Source: an uncultured Chloroflexia bacterium
GTDB lineage: Bacteria > Chloroflexota > Anaerolineae > JAAEKA01
Length of the DNA stretch: 64,000 nt
Reading direction: 5' to 3'
NCBI GenBank assembly: GCA_963709505.1
Contig: CAVPXC010000029.1
Span: 1,530 to 65,529, forward strand
Shown: one piece after another, positions 29,678-41,139 of the stretch
Numbering within the stretch: the stretch's first letter is position 1
Layout: each line of letters starts with the position of its first letter
Notes under the pieces: generated by a model
The model's input: only the letters and a program-made list of their open reading frames with translations
The model's database searches: none
Told to the model about the DNA's origin: nothing
Translations under genes and position numbers: made by a program

Positions 29678-32488
29678 ATGACGAGCGCACCATCCGGCGA
29701 AGCGAAGACCCGAAAAGAGCTGATCGATCCGGCGCTTGAGAAGGCCGGCTGGGATCTCGGCAATCCCGACCAGGTCGGCATCGAAATCCCGGTCGATGGC
29801 TTCGATCCGGCTGCGTGGCACACGCTCGAACTTCAACTGCGAGAAGCCAGGGTCTCCTACACCGTGGACCTGCCGGCCGGCGTCACCGACTATTCGCTCT
29901 ACCGGCCCAACGGCGAGATTATCGCCGTGGTCGAGGCCAAACGCACCAGTATTGATCCCAGGTTGGCCCAGGCTCAAACCCTGTTCTACGTCACACAGCT
30001 CGAAAAGCGCCAGAGCTTCCGGCCGTTTGCCTTCATGACCAACGGCCAGGACATCTACTTCTGGGATGCCGGACGGGCCAATAAGCGCCTGGTGATGGGC
30101 TTTTTCTCGCCTGACGACCTGGAAAACCTCCTCTACCTGCGGCAAAACCAAACCCCGCTCACAGCCGCATTCGTCAACACGAAAATCACCAACCGGAGCT
30201 ATCAGCTTGAGGCGGTCCAACGCGTGGTTGAAGCGTATGAACAAGGCAAGCGCAAGGCTCTGCTCGTCATGGCCACCGGCACCGGCAAAACGCGCGTGGC
30301 GATGTCCCTGGCCGACGTTTTCCTGCGCAGCAACCAGGCCCGGCGCATTCTATTTGTTGCCGACCGGGACGCGCTGGTGTCGCAGGCGATCGGCGAGGGC
30401 TTCGAAGAGCACATCCCCGACGAACCCTGCACACGACTCTTTGCTTACGACATCGATAAAACGAAACGCCTGTACGCCGTCACGTTGCAGACACTGAGCA
30501 ATTGCCTCGGCCAGTTCACGCCCAGCTTTTTCGACTTGATTATCTTCGACGAGGTGCATCGATCGATCTTCAACAAGTGGAACGAGGTGCTGCACTACTT
30601 CGACGGCCGGATGGTCGGTCTGACGGCCACGCCCGCGGCCTTTCTCGATCGCAACACTTTCCTGGAGTTCGAGTGCTACGACGCCAAGCCGACTTTCCTG
30701 TACGGCCATGAGGAGGCCGTGCGCGATGGCTACCTGATGGACTTCGACCTGTACGCCGCCCAGACCCGGTTTCAGCGCAAGGGCATCAAGGGCGTCGACC
30801 TGAGCGATGAGGAGCGCAACAGCCTGATCGAGCAGGGCCTCGACCCGGATGCGATCGACTACTCCGGCACCGATCTGGAGAAGCGGGTCAGCAACGCCGA
30901 CACGCTGCGCAAGCAGTGGCAGGAGATCATGGACGTATGCCGCAAGGACGAGTTGGGCCAGCTGCCGGGCAAGACGATCTTCTTTGCCATGACGCAGGAG
31001 CACGCCCTTCGCTTGGCGGCTGCGTTCGAAGAGATGTATCCGCAGTTTCCCGGCCTGGTGCAGGTGATCACCTACAAGTCGGAGTACAAGGGCACGCTGA
31101 TCGATACCTTCAAGAAGGAGAGCTTTCCGCGCATTGCCATCTCGGTGGACATGCTGGAGACCGGCGTCAACGTGCCCGAGGCGGTCAATTTGGTCTTCAT
31201 GCGTCCGGTGCAGTCGCGCATCAAGCTGGAGCAGATGATCGGGCGCGGCACGCGCAACAACGCGGCTTGCACTCACCCTGCCTGGCTGCCCAACGGCCGG
31301 AAGGAAGATTTCCTGGTCGTCGATTTCTGGGAGAACAACTTCGGCAAGACTGCGCAGGACGAGCCGCTCCAGAGCCTGCCCGTGCTGGTTGCGCTCTTCA
31401 ACACGCGCTTGAAGCTGCTGGAGAACTATCTGGGCGCTCAGTGGTCAGACGAAGCGATGCGGGTCAAGGCCGATTTGCGGGCCATGATCGAGCGGATTCC
31501 ACGCGATTCCTACTCGGTCAAGCTGGTGCTGCCGCAGATCGAGCAGGTCTGGGAGGAGTCTTTCTGGCAGTTCCTGACCGTTGTCAAGATCGACCTCCTG
31601 CGCCTCAAAGTGGGACCGCTGCTGCGCTATGCTCCCGACGTGGACGTGGCCAAGGAGACGTTTACACACAAGGTCGAGCGGCTCAGGATCCAGGTTCTGG
31701 CCGGACGCGACACGGCCGACCTGACCCAGTCGATTGCCGAGGACGCCAGCCGCTTGCCTGACTTCGTTCGGGAAGCGCCCGAGCGGGCCGCTGCCATCGC
31801 CTTTTGTCTCTCGCCGGCTTTGGGCTCAGCCTCCACCCACGAGCTCGATCAGGTGATCGACACCCTGGCCGGCCAGATGCGTTACCGCAAGGCGGCGGAC
31901 AGCGCCTTCCTGATGCTCGACCTGCCCGACTACATCGCTACCCGCGGCTACATCCTGTTGTTCGGCGGCGCTCAGGAGATGTACGTCGAAGCCTATCGCC
32001 GCCTGGTGGAGGAACGGGTGCTGGACTTGGCGGCCAACCATCCGACCGTGCGAGCGATCGAGCAGGGCCGCAAGGTCAGCGATCAGGAGTTGCTTGCTCT
32101 GGAGCGCACGCTGCGTCATGAGCTCGGCGTTCCCGGCGTCGAGCTGACCGAGGGCAACATCCGCAAGGCGTTCCTCAAGCGCGTCGGCAGCCTGATGGAG
32201 TTCGTGCGCGACATGCTGGAGCTCGACGGCATCCCCGACTACCAGGAAATCGTCCGGCGCCAGTTCGATGCGTACATGGGCGGGCACGCCGAGTTTAACG
32301 CCGACCAGCTGCGCTTTCTGCGGGCCGTGCAAAACGTCTTCTTGCAGAAGCGCCGGCTGACCCTGCCCGACCTCTACGATCCGCCGTTAACCGCCTTCGG
32401 TGCGGGCGCGGCCGATCGCTGGTTCACCGGGCAACAACTGAACGACGTGTTGGAGTTCTTCGAAACCCTCACCGTGACAGGAGACTGA
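29678..32488 (+). CDS. hsdR: Type I restriction endonuclease R subunit (EcoAI/EcoEI-like)
   Basis: TDYSL..VEAKR nuclease motif, MATGTGKT, DEVHRS, GLTATP, VDMLETGVN, QMIGRGTR, C-terminal LYDPPLT. Confidence 0.93.
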   Translation: MTSAPSGEAKTRKELIDPALEKAGWDLGNPDQVGIEIPVDGFDPAAWHTLELQLREARVSYTVDLPAGVTDYSLYRPNGEIIAVVEAKRTSIDPRLAQAQTLFYVTQLEKRQSFRPFAFMTNGQDIYFWDAGRANKRLVMGFFSPDDLENLLYLRQNQTPLTAAFVNTKITNRSYQLEAVQRVVEAYEQGKRKALLVMATGTGKTRVAMSLADVFLRSNQARRILFVADRDALVSQAIGEGFEEHIPDEPCTRLFAYDIDKTKRLYAVTLQTLSNCLGQFTPSFFDLIIFDEVHRSIFNKWNEVLHYFDGRMVGLTATPAAFLDRNTFLEFECYDAKPTFLYGHEEAVRDGYLMDFDLYAAQTRFQRKGIKGVDLSDEERNSLIEQGLDPDAIDYSGTDLEKRVSNADTLRKQWQEIMDVCRKDELGQLPGKTIFFAMTQEHALRLAAAFEEMYPQFPGLVQVITYKSEYKGTLIDTFKKESFPRIAISVDMLETGVNVPEAVNLVFMRPVQSRIKLEQMIGRGTRNNAACTHPAWLPNGRKEDFLVVDFWENNFGKTAQDEPLQSLPVLVALFNTRLKLLENYLGAQWSDEAMRVKADLRAMIERIPRDSYSVKLVLPQIEQVWEESFWQFLTVVKIDLLRLKVGPLLRYAPDVDVAKETFTHKVERLRIQVLAGRDTADLTQSIAEDASRLPDFVREAPERAAAIAFCLSPALGSASTHELDQVIDTLAGQMRYRKAADSAFLMLDLPDYIATRGYILLFGGAQEMYVEAYRRLVEERVLDLAANHPTVRAIEQGRKVSDQELLALERTLRHELGVPGVELTEGNIRKAFLKRVGSLMEFVRDMLELDGIPDYQEIVRRQFDAYMGGHAEFNADQLRFLRAVQNVFLQKRRLTLPDLYDPPLTAFGAGAADRWFTGQQLNDVLEFFETLTVTGD

Positions 32489-32489
32489 G

Positions 32490-34196
32490 TTGCTCACCGA
32501 CCCCAAGCTGCGCTCGCAGGTCGACCAACTGTGGAACAAGCTCTGGACAGGTGGACTGACCAACCCGATGGACGCCATCGAGCAGTTCTCCTATCTGCTC
32601 TTCCTCAAACGCATGGACGACGAGGAGAACAGCCGCGAGAAGCAGGCCATCCGCCGCGGCGAGGCCTTTGCGCCGCGCATCCCGCCCGAGATGCGCTGGT
32701 CGCAATGGTCGAAAATGGAGGCCGCGAAGGCGCTGAAGCACGTCCGGGAGGTCGTCTTTCCCTGGCTCAAGGAGTTGGGCGAGCAAGGCAGCTCCTTCGA
32801 GCGCTACATGGGCAACGCCGAGTTCAAGATCAACAAGCCCAACCTGCTGATCGAAGCCTGCAAATCTATCGACCAGATGCAGGTGTCGTCGCAGAACCAG
32901 GACGTGCAGGGCGATCTCTACGAATACCTGCTCAGCTACCTCACCACGGCGGGGCGCAACGGCCAGTTCCGCACGCCGCGCCACATCATCCGCATGATGG
33001 TGCAGATGATCGACCCCAAGCCGCGCGAGCGGGTGGGAGACCTGGCGGCCGGCACCTGCGGCTTCGGCGTCAACGCCTACCAGCACGTCCTCGAACAGCA
33101 CACCTCGGCCGGCATCCTGGAGTACGACGAGCAAGGCTGGCCCCACAACCTGGTGGGCGACCTGCTCACGCCTGAGCAGCGGGACTTCCTGCAAACAGGC
33201 TTCTTCCGGGGCTTTGACAACGACTCCGGCATGACCATGCTGCGCATCGGCTCGATGAACCTGATGCTGCACGGCATCGGCAACCCTCGCTTCTACTACA
33301 TGGACACCCTGTCCAAGGCCTTCGCCGAGGCGGCGGACTACGACGTGATCCTGATGAACCCGCCTTTCAAGGGCGCGGTGGACAAAGACGACGTCAATTC
33401 GACCCTGCCGGGCAACACCACCAAGTCGGAATTGCTCTTCCTGCACCTGATCCTGCGGGCGCTGGACATGGGCGGCCGCTGCGCGGTGATCGTGCCCGAC
33501 GGCGTGCTTTTTGGCTCCAGCACGGCGCACAAAGAGACGCGCAAAAAGCTCGTGGAGAGCAACCGGCTGGACGGCGTGATCTCGATGCCGGGCGGCGTGT
33601 TCAAGCCGTACGCGGGGGTGTCCACGGCCGTGTTGTTCTTCACCAAGGGCGCCAGCACCGAGCGCATCTGGTTCTACGACATGGCCCACGACGGCTTCTC
33701 GCTGGACGACAAGCGCCAGCCCGTAGCCGAAAACGACCTCCCCGACATCCTCGCCTGCTGGCGCAACCGAAAGAACCCTGAGTTCCTGACGCAACGCCAG
33801 ACCCGGCTGGAAACCCTGCAGGTCGAGGTAGCCCCGCTGAAGGCCGAGCGCCTGCGCCTGGCCGGCGAGATCAACCGGCTGACCTTCGAGAGCGTCATCG
33901 CAGCCAACGGGGACGAGCCGATCCATGCGGAGCTGGAGGCAGTCAAGCAAGAGCTGGCGAAGCTAGCAGCCAGGATCGCGCCGATCCAGCAGGAGATGAA
34001 CCAGCTGAGCCGGCAGTTCTGGGTCACGAAGGCCCAGGTCAAGGCCAATGGCTACGATTTGACGGCCAGCCGGTATCGACAGGTGGAGCAGGATGAGGCG
34101 TATTACGAGAAGCCGCAGGTGACGATGGAGCGGTTGCTTCGACTTGAGAGCATAATGCGCATCGAAATCGAAGATCTGGAGCGACGACTGGAATGA
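32490..34196 (+). CDS. hsdM: Type I R-M N6-adenine methyltransferase subunit
   Basis: GDLYEYLL, GQFRTPRHII, DLAAGTCGF, MNPPF, IVPDGVLF, GVFKPYAGVST, DGFSLDDKR. Confidence 0.93.
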   Translation: MLTDPKLRSQVDQLWNKLWTGGLTNPMDAIEQFSYLLFLKRMDDEENSREKQAIRRGEAFAPRIPPEMRWSQWSKMEAAKALKHVREVVFPWLKELGEQGSSFERYMGNAEFKINKPNLLIEACKSIDQMQVSSQNQDVQGDLYEYLLSYLTTAGRNGQFRTPRHIIRMMVQMIDPKPRERVGDLAAGTCGFGVNAYQHVLEQHTSAGILEYDEQGWPHNLVGDLLTPEQRDFLQTGFFRGFDNDSGMTMLRIGSMNLMLHGIGNPRFYYMDTLSKAFAEAADYDVILMNPPFKGAVDKDDVNSTLPGNTTKSELLFLHLILRALDMGGRCAVIVPDGVLFGSSTAHKETRKKLVESNRLDGVISMPGGVFKPYAGVSTAVLFFTKGASTERIWFYDMAHDGFSLDDKRQPVAENDLPDILACWRNRKNPEFLTQRQTRLETLQVEVAPLKAERLRLAGEINRLTFESVIAANGDEPIHAELEAVKQELAKLAARIAPIQQEMNQLSRQFWVTKAQVKANGYDLTASRYRQVEQDEAYYEKPQVTMERLLRLESIMRIEIEDLERRLE

Positions 34197-35359
34197 AGAT
34201 AGCTCCCATACGCTCGTTTGTAACGAAAACGAAGCAAATCGATCCAAAGGACCTTGGCCGTGCTCGTTTTGTCTACGTCGATATCTCCTCAATTGATCGG
34301 GAGACTAAACATATCGGCATCCCACAAGAGATCTCGGTGCTGGATGCTCCCAGCCGTGCTCGAAAGCTTATCAAGGCGGGTGATGTTCTGGTATCCACAG
34401 TTAGGCCTAATCTCAATGCGGTGGCACTTGTTAGCTCTGAATACGATGGTGAGGTAGCCTCAACAGGCATATGTGTACTCCGGCCAATCGAACGACAATT
34501 GGACGCCAAGTACCTCTTTTACTTTTGCCAAAGCGCCGGTTTCATTGAGCGTCTGACACGTCTGTCCATCGGTGCAGGTTATCCCGCCGTTTCAGATGAC
34601 AACATCCTTGATACCGAATTCCCTTGCCCTCCATTCCCCGAACAGCAGCGCATCGCCGGCATCCTCAGCCGGGCGGATCGCCTGCGCCGGCTGAGGCGGT
34701 ATGCGCTGGAGATGAGCGAGTCGTATTTGCAGGCGGTGTTTTTGGAATTGTTCGGTGACCCTGCAGGGAATCCAATGGGATGGGAAACCGGTCGATTACG
34801 AAAACTCTGCGCCAAAGTTGTTGATTGTCTACATTCAACTCCAAGCCATACTCGCGTAAAGACGCCGTATCCTTGTATTCGTAGCTCTGATATCCAGAAT
34901 GGACGCTTGGACTGGTCAACAACTCTGTATGTTGACAGCGAACAGTACGCGCTGCGCGTGGAACGTTTGGTACCACAGCCCGGTGATGTAGTATATTGCC
35001 GCGAGGGTGCTCGTCTGGGAAATGCAGCTATCATTCCAACGAGAACAACCCTCTGCTTAGGTCAACGAATGATGTTATTTCGTGCAAATCCCGAGGTAGC
35101 CACTCCTGAATTCATCTGGGCTATGCTCGATTCCCGGGCAATTCGCCAGCAAGTATCGGCTACAACTGGTGGTTCGGCTTCGCCCCACATCAATATCCAA
35201 GAGATAAATGCTTTTCAGGTGGTTGTTCCTCCTTTGACACGACAAAGGGAGTACTCAAGGGTAGTGCAAGACTTCGAACGGTTACGAATTCAGAAGCAAG
35301 AAGCTTTGCGCCAGGCCGAGCACCTGTTCCAGACGCTGCTTCATCAGGCGTTTCAGTAA
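34193..35359 (+). CDS. hsdS: Type I R-M specificity subunit
   Basis: Two TRDs (APSRAR..GDVLVSTVRPNL; PGDVVYCREG) each followed by a conserved helix (PPFPEQQRIA..LFGDP; PPLTRQREY..LLHQAF). Confidence 0.93.
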   Translation: MKIAPIRSFVTKTKQIDPKDLGRARFVYVDISSIDRETKHIGIPQEISVLDAPSRARKLIKAGDVLVSTVRPNLNAVALVSSEYDGEVASTGICVLRPIERQLDAKYLFYFCQSAGFIERLTRLSIGAGYPAVSDDNILDTEFPCPPFPEQQRIAGILSRADRLRRLRRYALEMSESYLQAVFLELFGDPAGNPMGWETGRLRKLCAKVVDCLHSTPSHTRVKTPYPCIRSSDIQNGRLDWSTTLYVDSEQYALRVERLVPQPGDVVYCREGARLGNAAIIPTRTTLCLGQRMMLFRANPEVATPEFIWAMLDSRAIRQQVSATTGGSASPHINIQEINAFQVVVPPLTRQREYSRVVQDFERLRIQKQEALRQAEHLFQTLLHQAFQ

Positions 35360-35593
35360 GTGACTTACCTGGAATAGCTTGAGCGAGGTCTGGACATGCT
35401 ACAATTGAGACAACCGTGGAGGCGTGAGATTGAATCAGAAGGTCACTGTTGGACGCTCTTGAGGATTTCGTCAATTTCGTCAGGAGTATTCACGTCGCTA
35501 CATTCTCTTAACAGGAATACTCTTCCAGCGCTGCACAAGATGCTTCGTAACAATCCGCATCAACACACCACTGCAAGGTAAGACTAGACGCCT

Positions 35594-36991
35594 ATGATTC
35601 CGTACAATCCCTTCAAGAAAGAAATCCAAGATCTGCAGGCAATCGATTTGGCAGTGCTGCGCGACGTAGCTGAAGGATGGTTTATCGAGTACAAGCAGGG
35701 TGAAGTCTCTTCTGCCAACATTGCGAAATCTCTTTCGGCATTTGCTAATCACTATGGTGGCTGGGTTTTCTACGGCATTGAGGAGGCGGCTGATGGAAGT
35801 CATCAGGCCGGCGCTTTTCCAGGCATAGAATCTTCGGCCGCTAATAAGATGGTCGACAGAATAGCGGTGGCGTCAAAGGACTCGGTTCATCCGTCAGTTT
35901 ACTATCAGCACAAGGTTCTTTCTGGTCCTTGTGAAGAAATTGGGCTTTCCGATGAAAGATCGATTGTCGTAGTATTGATACCGAGTGGGCAGGATGCGCC
36001 ATATGTACACTCTAGTGGCCGCATCTACCGTCGGATTGCGGATTCTTCTGATCCCAAAGCAGAGACAGATCGCAGCATTTTGGATCAGCTGTTGCAAAGG
36101 CGAAGTCAGGCTGAGTCGGCGCTCAGAGATTTTCTGACAACACGTCCTATTCTTTCGCAGGCTGAGGCTGGAATGAGCTACATGGACTTATTCCTGCTGC
36201 CAGATCCGTTACGAGCCGCAAACCAGTATACAACACTTGTCTTTGAGCAATTCGTTGATGTTATGAAGCGCCAGCCTCTATCCGGCTTCCATGCGCCTTT
36301 TGACAACTTCTTCACGATGGCTAGCGGCTTTGTCTGCAGACAGTTATCCAATAATGATCCGTACAACCTTTGTCTAACGTGGCGACACTTCGACAGGGGT
36401 TTTAGCCATGTTTCTATACCGTTGAGTGTCACATCACTGCTTGTTGCGGAGCGTGGCTCTCAACAAAACTACAGGTGGAGTGTGGACTTCTGCAAAGCAC
36501 TCCGTAAGGCACGCTTGCTGGAGACAACTGACATCGTTGATCTAAACCAAGTGGCAAAAGCAGTAATTGCCGTCGTTCATCAGCAGCGACAGCTTATGGC
36601 ATTGGGAGCCATCGAGGGACCGCTTTACGCAAAGGCGCGTATCCACAACGTTTGGCGACGGGTACCGTTTCTGGATGCGAAATCCTATCTGGATCTTATC
36701 GATGAACTGGGAATACCGATCATTCAGTATGACGAAGCATTTGTCCCTACCGGTGTGAACTTTGAGAGCTTAGCACTGTTGGCGACAGACCATCTAGATG
36801 CATATGATGATTTGGTCACTCGTCAAATCGTCGATGCGGCTCCGCTCTATGGTGGTCTACTTAACGCCTTTGGTCTTCACGGCGAAAAACTGCTCACTGA
36901 TCTTCTGCAACAGATGTTCGCATCGGGCGCTGAAGAATCTAGCCCAAATCACGAAATGCATATCGACAAGCAAAATCATCCATGTCAATAA
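35594..36991 (+). CDS. Schlafen/AlbA_2 domain protein with uncharacterised C-terminal region
   Basis: EGWFIEYK..IAKSLSAFANHYGGWVFYGIEE..PYVHSSGRIYRR. Confidence 0.8.
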   Translation: MIPYNPFKKEIQDLQAIDLAVLRDVAEGWFIEYKQGEVSSANIAKSLSAFANHYGGWVFYGIEEAADGSHQAGAFPGIESSAANKMVDRIAVASKDSVHPSVYYQHKVLSGPCEEIGLSDERSIVVVLIPSGQDAPYVHSSGRIYRRIADSSDPKAETDRSILDQLLQRRSQAESALRDFLTTRPILSQAEAGMSYMDLFLLPDPLRAANQYTTLVFEQFVDVMKRQPLSGFHAPFDNFFTMASGFVCRQLSNNDPYNLCLTWRHFDRGFSHVSIPLSVTSLLVAERGSQQNYRWSVDFCKALRKARLLETTDIVDLNQVAKAVIAVVHQQRQLMALGAIEGPLYAKARIHNVWRRVPFLDAKSYLDLIDELGIPIIQYDEAFVPTGVNFESLALLATDHLDAYDDLVTRQIVDAAPLYGGLLNAFGLHGEKLLTDLLQQMFASGAEESSPNHEMHIDKQNHPCQ

Positions 36992-37141
36992 TTACTTTGC
37001 CTGTATCGGTTTGCTTTCGTCATATTTCTGGACAGAGCAGTATCACCTGAAATCATACCACGAGAAACCGATACATGCCTGACGAACTACTTTACGCCGA
37101 ATCTACGCTCGCCCGAATTCTTCGTCGGCCACCGAGCGAAT

Positions 37142-38050
37142 ATGCAGTCTGAGTTTCACGAATTCGAGCAGCGTTTCCAGTATTTGCGTCATCACTGTTC
37201 GGCACAAGCACGCCGAATCGAGGACAAAACTGGCATCAGCCGGATTGTCGTCACGACTGGATACGGTGACGTTTGCCTTGGCAATGATCAGGACATTGCA
37301 AACTGGTTTCAAAAAACCCTAACCTCCGAAGAAGTGCGCTTCGTTGCCAGTCTGCGAGTTTTGAATCGCCGCCTTGGCAAGCAAAGTTTTGCCGAGTTAC
37401 TGGAAAGCAGTCTAGTCAAGGACGGTGTTTCTTTGCAGAGATACGTCACACTATTGGCGTGGCAACGAGCCAAAGGGAGACTGTGGGAATGGGTGATGCT
37501 GCTCGCTCTTATTTCGGGTCTACGTCGTGTCGTCCAGACGGAGAGTCACACCATCCGATTCAGCCCAGGTGCACTGCCGATTCCTATCTCGCTGCATGGA
37601 CACGACCTTTACCTTTGGTATCAACGTCAATTCCGCGCACATAGATCAGGATTAAGCGCCACTCCTGATCTTATGCTGACCCTGGATAGTGTGGAGCCGA
37701 ACGAACAAACAATTCATGCCATTATCGAATGTAAGCATACGCGCCGAATTGGATCGGACGCGATCCGATCGTTATGGGCTACCGCAGAGGATGTTCAGGC
37801 GGCCTTTGCCATATTGGCCTCCTTCGAATCGGTATCCTGGGGCATCCGAGATGGCGCAGAACGACTTGGCCTTAACATTCTCGAAAATCCGATAGCCGAT
37901 CTGAAGCGCATTCTTGGTCCGTCGCCTGCCGTCGATCTATTTGCAGAACTCACCGAACAACTCGAAGACATCGAATATCACAAACCTCTCGACAAATCAA
38001 GGTTTGCGCGGGAGAAACTAATGGATGAAAAACGCCGCCAGTGGTACTAA
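37142..38050 (+). CDS. Hypothetical protein with C-terminal PD-(D/E)xK nuclease-like motif; start may lie at 37075 via a frameshift
   Basis: ATPDLML..IIECKH; 302-aa ORF in the defence island. Confidence 0.55.
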   Translation: MQSEFHEFEQRFQYLRHHCSAQARRIEDKTGISRIVVTTGYGDVCLGNDQDIANWFQKTLTSEEVRFVASLRVLNRRLGKQSFAELLESSLVKDGVSLQRYVTLLAWQRAKGRLWEWVMLLALISGLRRVVQTESHTIRFSPGALPIPISLHGHDLYLWYQRQFRAHRSGLSATPDLMLTLDSVEPNEQTIHAIIECKHTRRIGSDAIRSLWATAEDVQAAFAILASFESVSWGIRDGAERLGLNILENPIADLKRILGPSPAVDLFAELTEQLEDIEYHKPLDKSRFAREKLMDEKRRQWY

Positions 38051-38074
38051 CGTTCTGGGAGCATCCGATTGGTT

Positions 38075-38177
38075 TGTCTTTCATGTACCACACAAGGCTG
38101 TGATGGAGATATATACCGATCTGTCGCTCGCCGAATGCCTGGCTGCGATGCGCGACGATCCGTGGTTTCATCCGTGA
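38075..38177 (+). pseudogene. 3' remnant of a paralog of the 39643-40056 gene
   Basis: Reads ..LSFMYHT..MEIYTDLSLAECLAAMRDDPWFHP* versus LSAMRHNGQWMVIFPDLSLEECLAALCDDPWFHP*. Confidence 0.75.
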
Positions 38178-38193
38178 TGGATATTCCCAGGTT

Positions 38194-38268
38194 TCTGGCA
38201 TTCGTTGTCCCGCATTCGCTGTTATATCCGGCGAACATCACAACGAATGCGGGACAACGAATGCCGGA
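38194..38268. repeat. Long palindrome (ACAACGAAT family), imperfect copy
   Basis: TCTGGCATTCGTTGTCCCGCATTCGCTGTTATAT..ACATCACAACGAATGCGGGACAACGAATGCCGGA. Confidence 0.85.
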
Positions 38269-38298
38269 GAAGTGCGATCTTCGGCGTCGAAATCAGCA

Positions 38299-38327
38299 TT
38301 GACAAACTGCGTCCGATCTGGTAAGAT
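38299..38327 (+). promoter_or_regulatory. Near-consensus sigma70 promoter
   Basis: TTGACA (38299-38304), 17 nt, TAAGAT (38322-38327), with extended -10 TG. Confidence 0.8.
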
Positions 38328-38334
38328 AGAGTCT

Positions 38335-38390
38335 GTAAAACCACCCACTCTGATTTCTTGCTTCGGCAAGAAACATGGTGGGTTTCTTTT
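38335..38390 (+). ncRNA. Candidate ~55-nt structured RNA / attenuator upstream of the NYN gene
   Basis: Inner stem TTTCTTGC-TTCG-GCAAGAAA (cUUCGg loop), outer stem ACCCAC/GTGGGT, then TTCTTTT; begins ~7 nt after the -10 box. Confidence 0.55.
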
Positions 38391-38434
38391 AGGTGCCCCT
38401 CAGTACGGTGCGATGGGCGGGAAGGATGGGTGGA

Positions 38435-38974
38435 ATGGACACGGTGGCCGTCTTCATCGATGGCAGCAACTTCTATTACAAGGTCAAAGACCTGGGTATT
38501 CGTCACCTTGCGAGCTTTGACTATCGTGGCTTGGCCGAGTGGCTTGCACATGGACGCGAGGTCGTGTATTGTGGTTACTACGTTGGCGTCGTCCGCGCCA
38601 AACCCGGTGACGCTAAGGCAGAAGCTATGAAAAATCAACAGGCCAATCTCTTCAATAATCTTCGATCGAAACGCCAGCGCATTACCGTTCATGGCGGTTT
38701 CATCATGGAAAACGCTGGCGTCTATCACGAGAAGGGCGTTGATGTCAAAATCGCCGTGGACTTGCTCACCGGCGCATACGAAGGGAGTTACGATACCGCC
38801 ATTCTATTGTCATCGGACACGGATCTGATACCGGTGATTCAGAAGGTGCGGACGCTGGGTAAGGCAGTTGAATACATCGGATTTGCTCATCGTCCGAGTT
38901 TAGGGCTTCAGAAACACGCTAGCCTGTCACGCTTGCTGATACGCGCCGAGATTGAGCCATTCGCTATGACATAG
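38435..38974 (+). CDS. NYN domain (PIN-fold, LabA/DUF88) ribonuclease
   Basis: VFIDGSNFY, EKGVDVKIAVD, ILLSSDTDLIP..GKAVE. Confidence 0.92.
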   Translation: MDTVAVFIDGSNFYYKVKDLGIRHLASFDYRGLAEWLAHGREVVYCGYYVGVVRAKPGDAKAEAMKNQQANLFNNLRSKRQRITVHGGFIMENAGVYHEKGVDVKIAVDLLTGAYEGSYDTAILLSSDTDLIPVIQKVRTLGKAVEYIGFAHRPSLGLQKHASLSRLLIRAEIEPFAMT

Positions 38975-39029
38975 GCACGAATCTACATTCAAGATTACCC
39001 CATTGCGGTATGCACGGCAGAGCCTCAGA

Positions 39030-39593
39030 ATGACAACCAAGATGGAAACCACATCAGATATAGAAGCGTTGCAGGCAGCAATCCGCGCTCAATGGCGTGC
39101 TGCACCGAGCGAGAAGGCCAAACGCTACGTGGGCCGGTTCTACGAAGCCACACGCATCGGATCGAAGATCGTCGCAAAGATCGAAGGCAACCACGGCACC
39201 TACGTCGTGTCCATCGAGTCCACAGCGGGTCGCGTGTCGTCTGGCTGTAGCTGCTATGTCGGCAAAGGCGGCTCGTGCCACCACTGCGAAGCGCTGGCAC
39301 ACACCTTTCTCCGAAATCCCAGCGCCTTCCATGAAGTCCAGCCAACCGCGCGCGAGGCAATCCAAAGTCTGGCCGATCTTCAAGCCTACCTGCAAGATGT
39401 GACACTGGAAACGTTGGTCGCCGAACTCAAGGCCAATGGCATCACCCAGTCTGCCTTTGCCGCTAGCATTGGCATGAACACGCGGCACCTGTCGGCCGTC
39501 AAGTCGAGCGAGTTGCGCAACCACTTCTTTCATGAGCTGGGCGCGACGAAGCTGGCGTGTCTATGGGTGTTGGAGCACATCAAGCCGAAGTGA
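39030..39593 (+). CDS. SWIM zinc-finger protein with C-terminal HTH-like segment
   Basis: GNHGTYVVSI..CSCYVGKGGSCHH (CxC..CxH); GITQSAFAASIGMNTRHLSAV. Confidence 0.7.
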   Translation: MTTKMETTSDIEALQAAIRAQWRAAPSEKAKRYVGRFYEATRIGSKIVAKIEGNHGTYVVSIESTAGRVSSGCSCYVGKGGSCHHCEALAHTFLRNPSAFHEVQPTAREAIQSLADLQAYLQDVTLETLVAELKANGITQSAFAASIGMNTRHLSAVKSSELRNHFFHELGATKLACLWVLEHIKPK

Positions 39594-39642
39594 ATCTGAA
39601 CCGGCGCCTGAGCGGCTGCCGGGCTCGAAAAGAGGACGTACC

Positions 39643-40056
39643 ATGCCAAACCCGAAAGGCCAGTGGGTTTATGACCCGAAGAAGTCGGTGTCGCCCAAGG
39701 TGTCGGATGCGCTCAAGCGAAAGGTGGAGATGGAGGCCAATGCTCTGATCGACACCGTGCTGAAGCCGCAGCATATCCAACCGCCACCAGAGGACCCGCA
39801 GTTCAACTACCTCGTGGATCTCTACGGCAAGTGGCGCGGCAGCTACTTCTATTTCTGTTCGCAGTATGCCTGTCCCGGTCCTAACGCCATCTCGCCATTC
39901 TTTGACGACAAGTTCGCACGCTTGGAATACATCGGCGGCGATCACTTCAGCCTGTCGGCCATGCGACACAACGGCCAGTGGATGGTGATCTTCCCCGATC
40001 TGTCGCTCGAAGAGTGTCTGGCTGCGCTGTGCGACGATCCGTGGTTCCACCCGTGA
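39643..40056 (+). CDS. Hypothetical protein (137 aa)
   Basis: AGAGGA RBS; FNYLVDLYGKWRGSYFYF..KFARLEY..MRHNGQW..DPWFHP; partial second copy at 38075-38177. Confidence 0.7.
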   Translation: MPNPKGQWVYDPKKSVSPKVSDALKRKVEMEANALIDTVLKPQHIQPPPEDPQFNYLVDLYGKWRGSYFYFCSQYACPGPNAISPFFDDKFARLEYIGGDHFSLSAMRHNGQWMVIFPDLSLEECLAALCDDPWFHP

Positions 40057-40072
40057 CGGATATTCCCAGGTT

Positions 40073-40147
40073 TCCGGCATTCGTTGTCCCGCATTCGTTG
40101 TGATATCTGACGAATATCACAACGAATGCGGGACAACGAATGCCGGA
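40073..40147. repeat. Perfect 34-bp-arm palindrome with 7-nt loop (ACAACGAAT family)
   Basis: 40073-40106 is the exact reverse complement of 40114-40147. Confidence 0.92.
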
Positions 40148-40171
40148 GAGGCGCAACCTTCGGGTTTCGCC

Positions 40172-40200
40172 TTGCATCTCTACTAAGCTAATGCTACAAT
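40172..40200 (+). promoter_or_regulatory. Sigma70-type promoter for the HNH gene pair
   Basis: TTGCAT, 17 nt, TACAAT with extended -10 TG. Confidence 0.7.
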
Positions 40201-40292
40201 CCTCACACCAAGAGATGGTTCCGGCTAATGATTTGGTTAACCTACCTGGACTAGAAATGCGCTGACCTCTGCGTGTAAGGAGATATGATTAT

Positions 40293-40721
40293 ATGAGCAC
40301 AGCAATGGTGTCGATTCAACTACCAGAAACCTTGTTTCAGAAGCTCAAGCGCGCGGCTGATCTTACGCATCGTCCGATCGAGGAAATCGCCGCGACGTCA
40401 TTGGAAGCTGTCTTGCCCACAACACCGGGTTTACCTGCTGACATCACCGCTGAGTTGGCTGCCATGCAATTGTTTAGCGATGCTGCCTTGCGGGCAGCGG
40501 TCGAACCATCGCTGTCACCAGCGGAGCAATGGCGGCTCCATCAACTCAATGCAACGGCGGGCGAGCGTGACCTAACCTTGCCTGAAAGAAGCGAGCAAGA
40601 GGCCCTCATCGCTGCCTACAACCGCTCTGTTCTACGTCGGGCTAAAGCTCTGGCCATTCTCGCACAGCGTGGTCATGACCTGAGTGGAATCCTCCGAGTC
40701 GCTGACTATGACGGGGAGTGA
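40293..40721 (+). CDS. Hypothetical protein with RHH-like N-terminus (putative antitoxin/regulator)
   Basis: VSIQLPETLFQKLKRAA..PIEEI N-terminus; overlaps the HNH gene. Confidence 0.6.
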   Translation: MSTAMVSIQLPETLFQKLKRAADLTHRPIEEIAATSLEAVLPTTPGLPADITAELAAMQLFSDAALRAAVEPSLSPAEQWRLHQLNATAGERDLTLPERSEQEALIAAYNRSVLRRAKALAILAQRGHDLSGILRVADYDGE

Positions 40722-41139
40722 AGTACCTCAGTCTTTACGCCGGCTAGTCAAGGCCAGGGCACAAGGTCGCTGCGAATATTGCCAGATGTCCGAAACAATA
40801 ACGGGGCTGCATTGCGAGATCGATCACATTATCCCCTTCAGTCGGCAAGGCGCTTCGACGGAAGACAATCTCTGTCTTGCTTGTGCGGCATGCAATGGTC
40901 ACAAACAGGCTCGCAGCCATACTGTCGATCCGGAGTCCGGTAAGTCGGTCCCGCTCTTCAATCCTCGGCAACAGGACTGGAAGCAGCATTTTGACTGGAG
41001 TCCTGATGGCGCAGAGATAATTGGGGTGACGCCAACTGGTAGAGCAACGGTTGCTGCGCTAGAGATGAACGATCCTCTGCTGGTCGGCGCTCGTTCGCTA
41101 TGGGTTAGTTTTGGGGTTCACCCGCCTAAAGACCAATAG
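40708..41139 (+). CDS. HNH endonuclease
   Basis: CEYC..EIDHIIP..NLCLACAACNGHK..LFNPR..HF..TPTGRATV. Confidence 0.9.
   Translation: MTGSEVPQSLRRLVKARAQGRCEYCQMSETITGLHCEIDHIIPFSRQGASTEDNLCLACAACNGHKQARSHTVDPESGKSVPLFNPRQQDWKQHFDWSPDGAEIIGVTPTGRATVAALEMNDPLLVGARSLWVSFGVHPPKDQ

Follow-up and report, generated by a model that had tools for sequence, protein, structure and literature searches.

The 64,000-nucleotide (nt) stretch of DNA analysed here (the window; contig CAVPXC010000029.1, positions 1,530 to 65,529, from an uncultured Chloroflexia bacterium) carries at positions 38299–38974 a promoter, a short structured RNA and, on the same strand, a gene for a NYN ribonuclease of the LabA/COG1432 type. 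From the comparisons described below, this pairing of a hairpin RNA gene with a NYN gene recurs in many unrelated bacteria. The features of the pair are as follows.

38299–38327, plus strand: promoter of the small RNA, with a TTGACA −35 box (38299–38304), a 17-nt spacer, a TG and a TAAGAT −10 box (38322–38327)
38335–38391, plus strand: small RNA of about 57 nt, made up of a tail, a two-tier hairpin and a U-tract, as delineated by folding and covariance models
38335–38342, plus strand: single-stranded 5′ tail of the RNA, GUAAAACC, 8 nt
38343–38349 (ACCCACU) with 38377–38383 (GGUGGGU), plus strand: outer stem of the RNA, 7 bp
C38350 and U38376 (unpaired) and A38353 (bulged), plus strand: internal loop of the RNA
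38351–38352 (UG) with 38374–38375 (CA), and 38354–38361 with 38366–38373, plus strand: inner stem of the RNA, 2 + 8 bp
38362–38365, plus strand: UUCG loop closing the 8-bp stem
38384–38390, plus strand: U-tract of the RNA, UUUCUUUU, interrupted
38392–38434, plus strand: spacer between the RNA and the NYN gene, with a Shine-Dalgarno-like GGAAGGA (38420–38426) 8 nt before the ATG
38435–38974, plus strand: NYN (LabA/COG1432-type) ribonuclease gene, 179 aa, ATG at 38435, stop at 38974, assigned to Pfam NYN

The promoter is the top sigma-70-like site in 37000–41000, fitting at 10 of 12 positions with a TG preceding the −10 box, and it places the predicted transcription start at about 38334–38336, the element itself beginning some 8 nt past the −10 box. 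Folded as a single sequence the 57-nt RNA has a minimum free energy of −22.9 kcal/mol, the 116-nt region around the hairpin folds with z = −2.47 relative to shuffles, and the RNA scores 69.4 and 55.3 bits against two covariance models of the family (R1 and R2, respectively). A GC-rich hairpin followed by a U-tract, the hallmark of an intrinsic terminator, is present and very probably ends transcription of the small RNA itself. No extended −10 element is found in the spacer 38392–38434, so that NYN is probably made in the window by read-through across this weak, interrupted terminator. A sequence-only reading of the locus had described TTGACA-17-TAAGAT, a two-tier UUCG hairpin and a U-rich tract, all of which are present, and a gap of 45 nt to an intact NYN gene, which measures 44 nt and leads to a protein with its acidic residues in place.

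The NYN assignment of the 179-aa protein is secure by Pfam (PF01936, E = 2.6e-22, 80.4 bits against a curated cut-off of 24.2), and residues D9, D103, D109, D120 and D128 are invariant across 16 homologues. A sequence search of the Protein Data Bank returned nothing useful and a fold search was required: with an AlphaFold2 model of the window protein (predicted local distance difference test score 89.8), Foldseek gave VPA0982 (2qip) and the NYN domain of MARF1 (5yaa, 6fdl) as best matches (E = 1.6e-8 to 5e-5, template modelling score 0.58–0.74). These proteins share the fold and the acidic active-site residues, although their sequences are only 13–20% identical to that of the window protein; to our knowledge neither has a partner RNA, and MARF1 uses extra RNA-binding domains. 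The model has the NYN/PIN-like fold, the acidic active site is intact, and the nuclease looks active. A PADLOC scan matched the protein to its HEC-09 and NYN models only, the former at E = 1.4e-20 between residues 1–146 and profile positions 1–150 of 203, in a library without a curated cut-off.

Homologues of this protein were used to collect further loci. Of the 1270 candidate proteins from a search with NYN, many of them source-named Patescibacteria, 1182 have E ≤ 1e-10, and 50 NYN-anchored loci (10 genomic, 40 metagenomic) were fetched. The R1 model, built from 9 sequences, matches 43 of 55 sources, namely the window, an orphan copy elsewhere in the window's genome and 41 of the 50 fetched loci; R2 adds one more (L048), giving 42 of 50, with the RNA in tandem upstream of NYN in 27 and convergent downstream of it in 15. 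Among the loci matched by neither model, three have the NYN gene cut by the contig end (L067, L079, L093), in two the contig ends just past the gene (L083, L084), and one encodes a distant homologue with 34% identity (L095). Another (L054, 42% identity) is also unmatched, yet a promoter-hairpin-T-run unit of other sequence stands there. The eighth, L051, is a true exception and is described below. A scan independent of any RNA model, for TTGnnn and TAnnnT separated by 16–18 nt, a hairpin of −12 kcal/mol or better and a T-run, finds such a unit adjoining NYN in 40 of 57 distinct loci (36 of the 47 with full flanks), at a density of 1.63 per kb beside NYN as against 0.071 per kb in the rest of these loci, a 23-fold enrichment. 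One downstream hairpin that it returned (L046) was discarded as an unrelated terminator. Homologues of 25–46% identity (L043, L044, L113–L122, L137, L138) come with similarly designed units whose stem sequences differ: in a NYN clade of 40–46% identity the RNA consists of the tail CUAAAUCC followed by CCCCUG-UGAG-stem-GNRA-stem-UUUG-CAGGGG, and homologues more distant again (L043, L044, L122, L137, L138) have one- or two-hairpin units with a consensus promoter.

The same association emerges when whole genomes are searched. With R2, the window's genome gives matches at the NYN-linked copy and at the orphan only, and there is a single strong match adjoining NYN in 8 of the 10 other genomes with a fetched NYN locus, G065 (the genome of L054) and G216 (that of L051) having none. 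In a 151-genome sample of the phylum of genome G064, a small-genome phylum whose loci carry Peregrinibacteria-type titles, R2 matches four genomes at E ≤ 1e-3, and the two strong matches (57.7 and 49.6 bits) adjoin NYN; the weak ones in G108 and G133 (about 32 bits) were rejected as plain terminators after open reading frames (ORFs), with no promoter and no tail. NYN itself occurs at E ≤ 1e-30 in 11 of these 151 genomes, and an adjacent unit is seen in all 11 (2 by R2, 5 by the model-free scan, 4 by eye). No comparable constancy extends to the surroundings. A search of 86 other loci (75 with NYN at E ≤ 1e-3) recovered none of the six proteins that neighbour the pair in the window. A set of 76 flanking ORFs from 18 loci, which are mutually unrelated across clades, includes transposases (IS110, DDE and Mu-type) and, in the small genomes, housekeeping genes; L046, L063 and L064 are among the loci with transposases. 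The genes upstream of the pair vary between loci and are often divergent. The conserved unit is thus the RNA plus NYN alone. A DNA search for the RNA element in the genomes of 60 relatives recovered only the window's own genome, so that protein-anchored loci were needed for its comparison.

Alignment of 16 sequences (15 distinct NYN-linked loci and the orphan) reveals a TTGACA/TTGACR −35 box and a TAnnnT −10 box equidistant from the hairpin in every one. The tail, short and A-rich with the consensus YUAAMMMC, recurs in the 100 nt before NYN start codons; the outer stem varies as CCCAC/GUGGG, CCCGC/GCGGG or CCCGU/ACGGG and is followed by a small pyrimidine internal loop, while the upper stem is wholly different in each locus (UUUCUUGC, CCCC, UGGCC, UCCC, AUCC, UAGC) and is closed by UUCG or GCAA. 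Across loci the RNA is about 45–60 nt long, with a T-run at its end. In an alignment of 23 RNAs (22 distinct) fitted to the covariance model, 96.1% of cells pair, compared with 39–51% when the partners are slid by 1–3 columns; both sides change in 7 of 13 pairs among the distinct RNAs, and the covariation score of 0.425 (0.193 for shuffled alignments) was reached by none of 500 shuffles. The result was checked on an unfitted MAFFT alignment (A4), for which RNAalifold returns the same 13 pairs with compensatory changes in 5, and by single-sequence folding, which gives the two-tier hairpin in 16 of 16 cases, the outer stem of the orphan copy pairing in a shifted register. A covarying structure upstream of NYN homologues, suggested by the sequence-only reading as something to look for, is thus found. 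Near-invariant within it are the three G-C pairs at the base of the helix, U2, A3 and A4 of the tail, which is kept across phyla, and the U-tract; the invariance of helix base and tail points to sequence-specific recognition at the junction between them.

No Rfam 15 family matches this RNA: over 38336–38388 only a minus-strand microRNA model appears (E = 0.2, far below its gathering score), and a scan of 36000–41000 at E ≤ 10 yields nothing but microRNA models below threshold, some placed spuriously on palindromes and some on the hairpin's minus strand. Full-text literature searches returned no paper in which NYN proteins are given an RNA partner or an RNA antitoxin, and the family (models R1 and R2, alignment A7), absent from Rfam 15, is apparently undescribed.

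Orientation and promoters bear on whether the RNA is a gene in its own right. In the 15 convergent loci it lies on the opposite strand, its hairpin 8–36 nt past the stop codon of a NYN gene whose product is 47–53% identical to the window's; record titles, where given, are Peregrinibacteria/Peribacteria. A promoter of its own (TTGAT/TTGCT-17-TATATT/TACACT) precedes the RNA here; the tail (YUAAACCCA) and the outer stem are kept, and the upper stem is short in some loci and bears a 20–30-nt insertion in others. One locus (L119, on G146:C2) combines a single NYN gene with two RNA units, an upstream one (CUAACCCCUCCCAG...) and a convergent one (GUUAAUCCCCCCUGUGAG...) ending at the stop codon, and is a second case of the convergent arrangement. 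Among AT-rich tandem loci, an extended −10 element (TGnTAnnnT, background 1.33 per kb) ends 6–11 nt before the NYN ATG in 10 of 10, and no Shine-Dalgarno sequence precedes NYN; this fits a separate, near-leaderless NYN transcript in such genomes. The window and its four closest distinct relatives (81–89% identity) have a Shine-Dalgarno sequence instead and no extended −10 promoter. Because the RNA has its own promoter in the convergent clade and NYN a separate −10 element in AT-rich loci, the RNA is an independent small-RNA gene, neither a leader only nor the terminator of a neighbour; that the hairpin is not a terminator of upstream genes follows from the latter being different from locus to locus and often divergent.

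The distribution of the pair is patchy. NYN is found in none of 17 same-family genomes searched, compared with the 11 of 151 in the sampled phylum, and the RNA-NYN pair is accessory, with a sporadic, mobile distribution. Viral contigs yielded only distant NYN relatives, of at most 34% identity over a full-length match, and no close phage-borne copy. In L053, L054, L114, L118, L122 and L137 the pair has transfer RNA (tRNA) genes no more than about 250 nt away, and it is flanked by tRNA-Gly(ccc) and tRNA-Thr(cgt) in L054 and L114; such proximity could mean that these sites are integration hotspots or that the pair is functionally connected with tRNA.

We tentatively propose, with a little less than even confidence, that the locus is a self-contained two-gene module in which the RNA, made in excess, binds and restrains the NYN ribonuclease in the manner of a type III toxin-antitoxin system. 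The RNA would be transcribed from its near-consensus promoter and should exceed the nuclease, since NYN depends on read-through in the window and on a weak promoter consisting only of an extended −10 element in AT-rich genomes. Binding would occur through the tail-helix junction, the RNA serving as a pseudo-substrate or as a processed substrate that keeps NYN inactive; should RNA synthesis drop or the RNA decay, as upon phage shut-off or when the element is lost, the released NYN would cleave RNA of the cell or of the phage and prove toxic. Such logic would be that of a type III-like toxin-antitoxin or abortive infection module with a different nuclease fold and an unrepeated RNA. A direct RNA-protein partnership is also the simplest mechanism that serves both orientations. 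Complementarity between the tail and the NYN mRNA is not apparent, duplexes in 19 loci having a mean z of +0.30 against shuffled tails (best −0.71) at inconsistent positions, so that antisense control is unlikely outside the 3′ overlap of convergent genes.

Several observations weigh against this proposal. Promoter-like sites are fairly common in 37000–41000 (5 seen against 3.2 expected) and a simple terminator scan missed the hairpin, so that the window locus by itself is modest evidence and it is the comparative data that place the element beyond chance. The convergent clade counts as roughly one evolutionary rearrangement. In G216 (L051) a NYN protein 49% identical to the window's has no RNA adjoining it, with 126 nt available, or elsewhere in a genome of unknown completeness, and the model-free scan finds no unit beside the remote homologues L045, L123, L127, L134 and L139. 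The RNA is a single hairpin, whereas type III antitoxins are tandem repeats; we know of no characterised type III antitoxin whose RNA is not repeated. Metatranscriptome contigs, of low depth and sparse, show neither a discrete small RNA nor transcription. Finally, HEC-09, a PADLOC candidate whose NYN protein occurs inside Hma systems, was cloned with its native promoter region and failed to protect against the phages used, as reported in the accessible text of the study (bioRxiv 10.1101/2024.01.29.577857).

The sequencing-run evidence just mentioned comes from 24 runs, 20 of which cover the stretch in part, none reaching half of its sampled words; four were compared, as contigs only. One RNA-library contig (depth 2.4) covers 38349–38389 and then 38510–38581, with 119 unlike letters between, and three RNA libraries have coverage towards the 3′ end of NYN, from 38795 on. 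In one DNA run (X2) the summed contig depth reaches 50 over the hairpin and 4.8 over NYN, a difference given no weight; community contigs of this run carry the hairpin (38313–38400) with flanks unlike the window's, which fits an RNA common to diverged loci.

The main rival, rather unlikely though it draws on much of the same evidence, is that toxin-antitoxin behaviour is not involved and that NYN works with the RNA as a ribonucleoprotein or acts on it as enzyme on substrate, the RNA being a cofactor, specificity subunit or scaffold, or else a regulatory small RNA matured by NYN at the tail-helix junction. Linkage, covariation and single-copy occurrence apply to it equally, the conserved tail and helix base suit a protein recognition site, tRNA genes stand nearby in six loci, and HEC-09 gave no defence; moreover, NYN domains were tied to RNA processing by earlier neighbourhood analyses, in the part of that work available (PMC5499597). 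Against it stand the accessory, sporadic spread (11 of 151 and 0 of 17 genomes), the flanking transposases, the defence-island setting of the pair in the window (described below) and an RNA promoter that looks much stronger than the expression signals of NYN, all of which suit a selfish or defence module more than a particle with a housekeeping role; nor does the RNA have a variable single-stranded part that could act as a guide.

A role confined to cis, in which a strong promoter runs into a leader hairpin and terminator that sets or autoregulates NYN while the free RNA has no function, is improbable for the family. Autoregulation through cleavage of the enzyme's own leader has precedents in RNase III and RNase E. 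The window and its 81–89% identical relatives have no recognisable second promoter, so that transcription of NYN in this subgroup must begin at the RNA promoter and continue past the hairpin; a Shine-Dalgarno sequence lies beyond the U-tract, which is itself interrupted (UUUCUUUU). A purely cis leader role may therefore apply in the window's own subgroup, but it is insufficient for the family as a whole, in view of a convergent clade with the RNA downstream on the other strand under its own promoter, a separate extended −10 element for NYN in 10 of 10 AT-rich tandem loci, an orphan copy that persists upstream of an unrelated phd-vapC pair, and a tail sequence kept across phyla that attenuation does not require. 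Simple attenuation, which the sequence-only reading had held in reserve, is in general weakened by the first three of these.

Slightly less credit still is given to the notion that the RNA, instead of inhibiting NYN, joins it as an obligate subunit in a minimal ribonucleoprotein, shaping or aiming the nuclease as scaffold, specificity factor or pre-tRNA-like docking minihelix; if true, this would define a new kind of small RNA-dependent nuclease, spread horizontally through Patescibacteria-type and other bacteria. Very unlikely is a type I-like antisense regulator of the NYN mRNA: in the 15 convergent loci a NYN transcript ending at the same bidirectional hairpin would indeed be complementary to the RNA, but in the window and the 27 tandem loci both lie on the same strand, tail duplexes are no better than shuffled ones, and NYN is not a small membrane peptide. 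That the element is an ordinary intrinsic terminator of a neighbour with a chance promoter, and functionless, can be dismissed as scarcely credible: it has the A-tract, GC stem and T-tract of a bidirectional terminator, both copies in the window's genome trail a DUF3024 3′ remnant and weak model matches elsewhere are plain terminators, but promoter, tail and helix base persist, with compensatory changes, beside NYN homologues as little as 48% identical, amid unrelated flanks and behind upstream genes of divergent orientation, the enrichment beside NYN is 23-fold, and a conserved promoter and tail precede the hairpin.

The proposed restraint of NYN by its RNA may be compared with known systems. 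In common with the type III systems ToxIN, CptIN and TenpIN, the window and the 27 tandem loci present the order promoter, RNA, terminator, RNase, in a small mobile two-component module found in defence contexts, for which direct neutralisation of protein by RNA is proposed here. They differ in that the nuclease has a NYN/PIN-like metal-dependent fold and not that of a ToxN/CptN/TenpN-type endoribonuclease, and in that the genes are convergent in one clade and the nuclease has its own promoter in AT-rich genomes. The type III-like label of the sequence-only reading is accordingly borne out for gene order and fails for the repeats, none being found by Tandem Repeats Finder (no array in 38285–38434, the only row, 38240–38268, falling inside a palindrome resembling the repetitive extragenic palindromic (REP) class), and for the toxin; with an unrepeated RNA and a toxin not of the ToxN type, 'type III-like' can mean only 'works like' and not 'member of'.

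A parallel is offered by the abiF-motif RNA, a conserved structured RNA located just upstream of a predicted RNase/Abi gene and first known as an RNA motif, of which the Clostridioides difficile representative RCd22 neutralises AbiF (Abi_2) by direct binding in cis and in trans, as described in the accessible portion of the report (PMC12373285). The proteins differ (NYN as opposed to Abi_2/HEPN-like), and the RNAs are unrelated. The window NYN resembles HEC-09 in matching positions 1–150 of the 203 in its profile and in sitting among defence genes; HEC-09 is a single protein with a weak N-terminal helix-turn-helix-like region, for which the available text of its description makes no mention of an RNA partner, and an RNA partnership of the kind proposed may explain the lack of phenotype of the single gene. 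A CRISPR-associated NYN protein is reported, in the text available, to cut single-stranded RNA without sequence preference in the presence of Mn2+ (bioRxiv 10.1101/2024.04.08.588522), an activity that would suit a nuclease needing restraint, although this is a different NYN protein.

Stand-alone bacterial NYN proteins (LabA/COG1432) are a very large family, and the function of NYN.COG1432 was listed as unknown in the consulted portion of a 2017 classification of the PIN superfamily (PMC5499597). A dedicated, covarying RNA partner with its own promoter now gives the present subfamily a mechanism specific enough to be tested. Were the RNA an antitoxin, the two would constitute a new RNA-antitoxin system based on one hairpin and a metal-dependent PIN-like nuclease, common in small genomes with Patescibacteria-type names.

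Upstream and downstream of the pair, the window contains the following features, the restriction genes being recognised by family search.

29678–32488: hsdR of a type I restriction system, upstream of the pair
32490–34196: hsdM of the type I restriction system
34193–35359: hsdS of the type I restriction system
35594–36991: Schlafen/AlbA_2 protein gene, after hsdS
38102–38284, plus strand: left copy of a 183-nt direct repeat, outside the module (right copy 39981–40163, 87% identity)
39532–40056: DUF3024 gene, downstream of a SWIM-like ORF

The region 29678–36991 has the composition of a defence island, as judged from its gene families, and a 302-aa ORF of no known family follows the Schlafen/AlbA_2 gene, upstream of the RNA-NYN pair. 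The 183-nt repeat comprises the 3′ end of the DUF3024 gene and a REP-like palindrome of about 90 nt, and its two copies bracket the RNA, NYN, the SWIM-like ORF and DUF3024 in an arrangement that looks like the remains of a tandem duplication. The palindromes (38185–38277 and 40073–40147) are built of ACAACGAATGCGGGA-type units, and of the 96 matches that the repeat as query gives in the window's genome, nearly all fall in the palindrome. A 50-aa ORF at 38025–38177 ends in LSLAECLAAMRDDPWFHP, repeating the C-terminus of the DUF3024 protein, and is probably a gene remnant.

The orphan copy of the small-RNA gene (G000:C14:38674–38869, L002 at about 1427–1610) is 83% identical to the window's promoter-hairpin and lies after a DUF3024 3′ remnant and before a phd/yefM-PIN (vapC-like) pair, with no NYN gene nearby; its outer stem is weakened in the family register (39 bits with R2, compared with 55.3 for the window copy), and NYN has no second close copy in this genome. 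As both copies trail a DUF3024 remnant, the hairpin was considered as a DUF3024-linked element or ordinary terminator, an explanation overturned by the comparative loci.

Downstream of NYN follow, in order, a 196-aa SWIM-like ORF, the DUF3024 protein, a 142-aa ORF and an HNH nuclease. The first has a SWIM-like CxC...CxH motif by inspection, Pfam giving no family, and overlaps the DUF3024 ORF by 62 nt (39003–40056 together); no counterpart of either turns up beside NYN in the 86 other loci. At 40293–41139 the 142-aa ORF, which belongs to no known family, runs into the beginning of the 151-aa HNH nuclease gene, whose product is PtuB-like by PADLOC and contains an IscB/Cas9-type HNH region by NCBIfam, and the two may form a two-gene unit.

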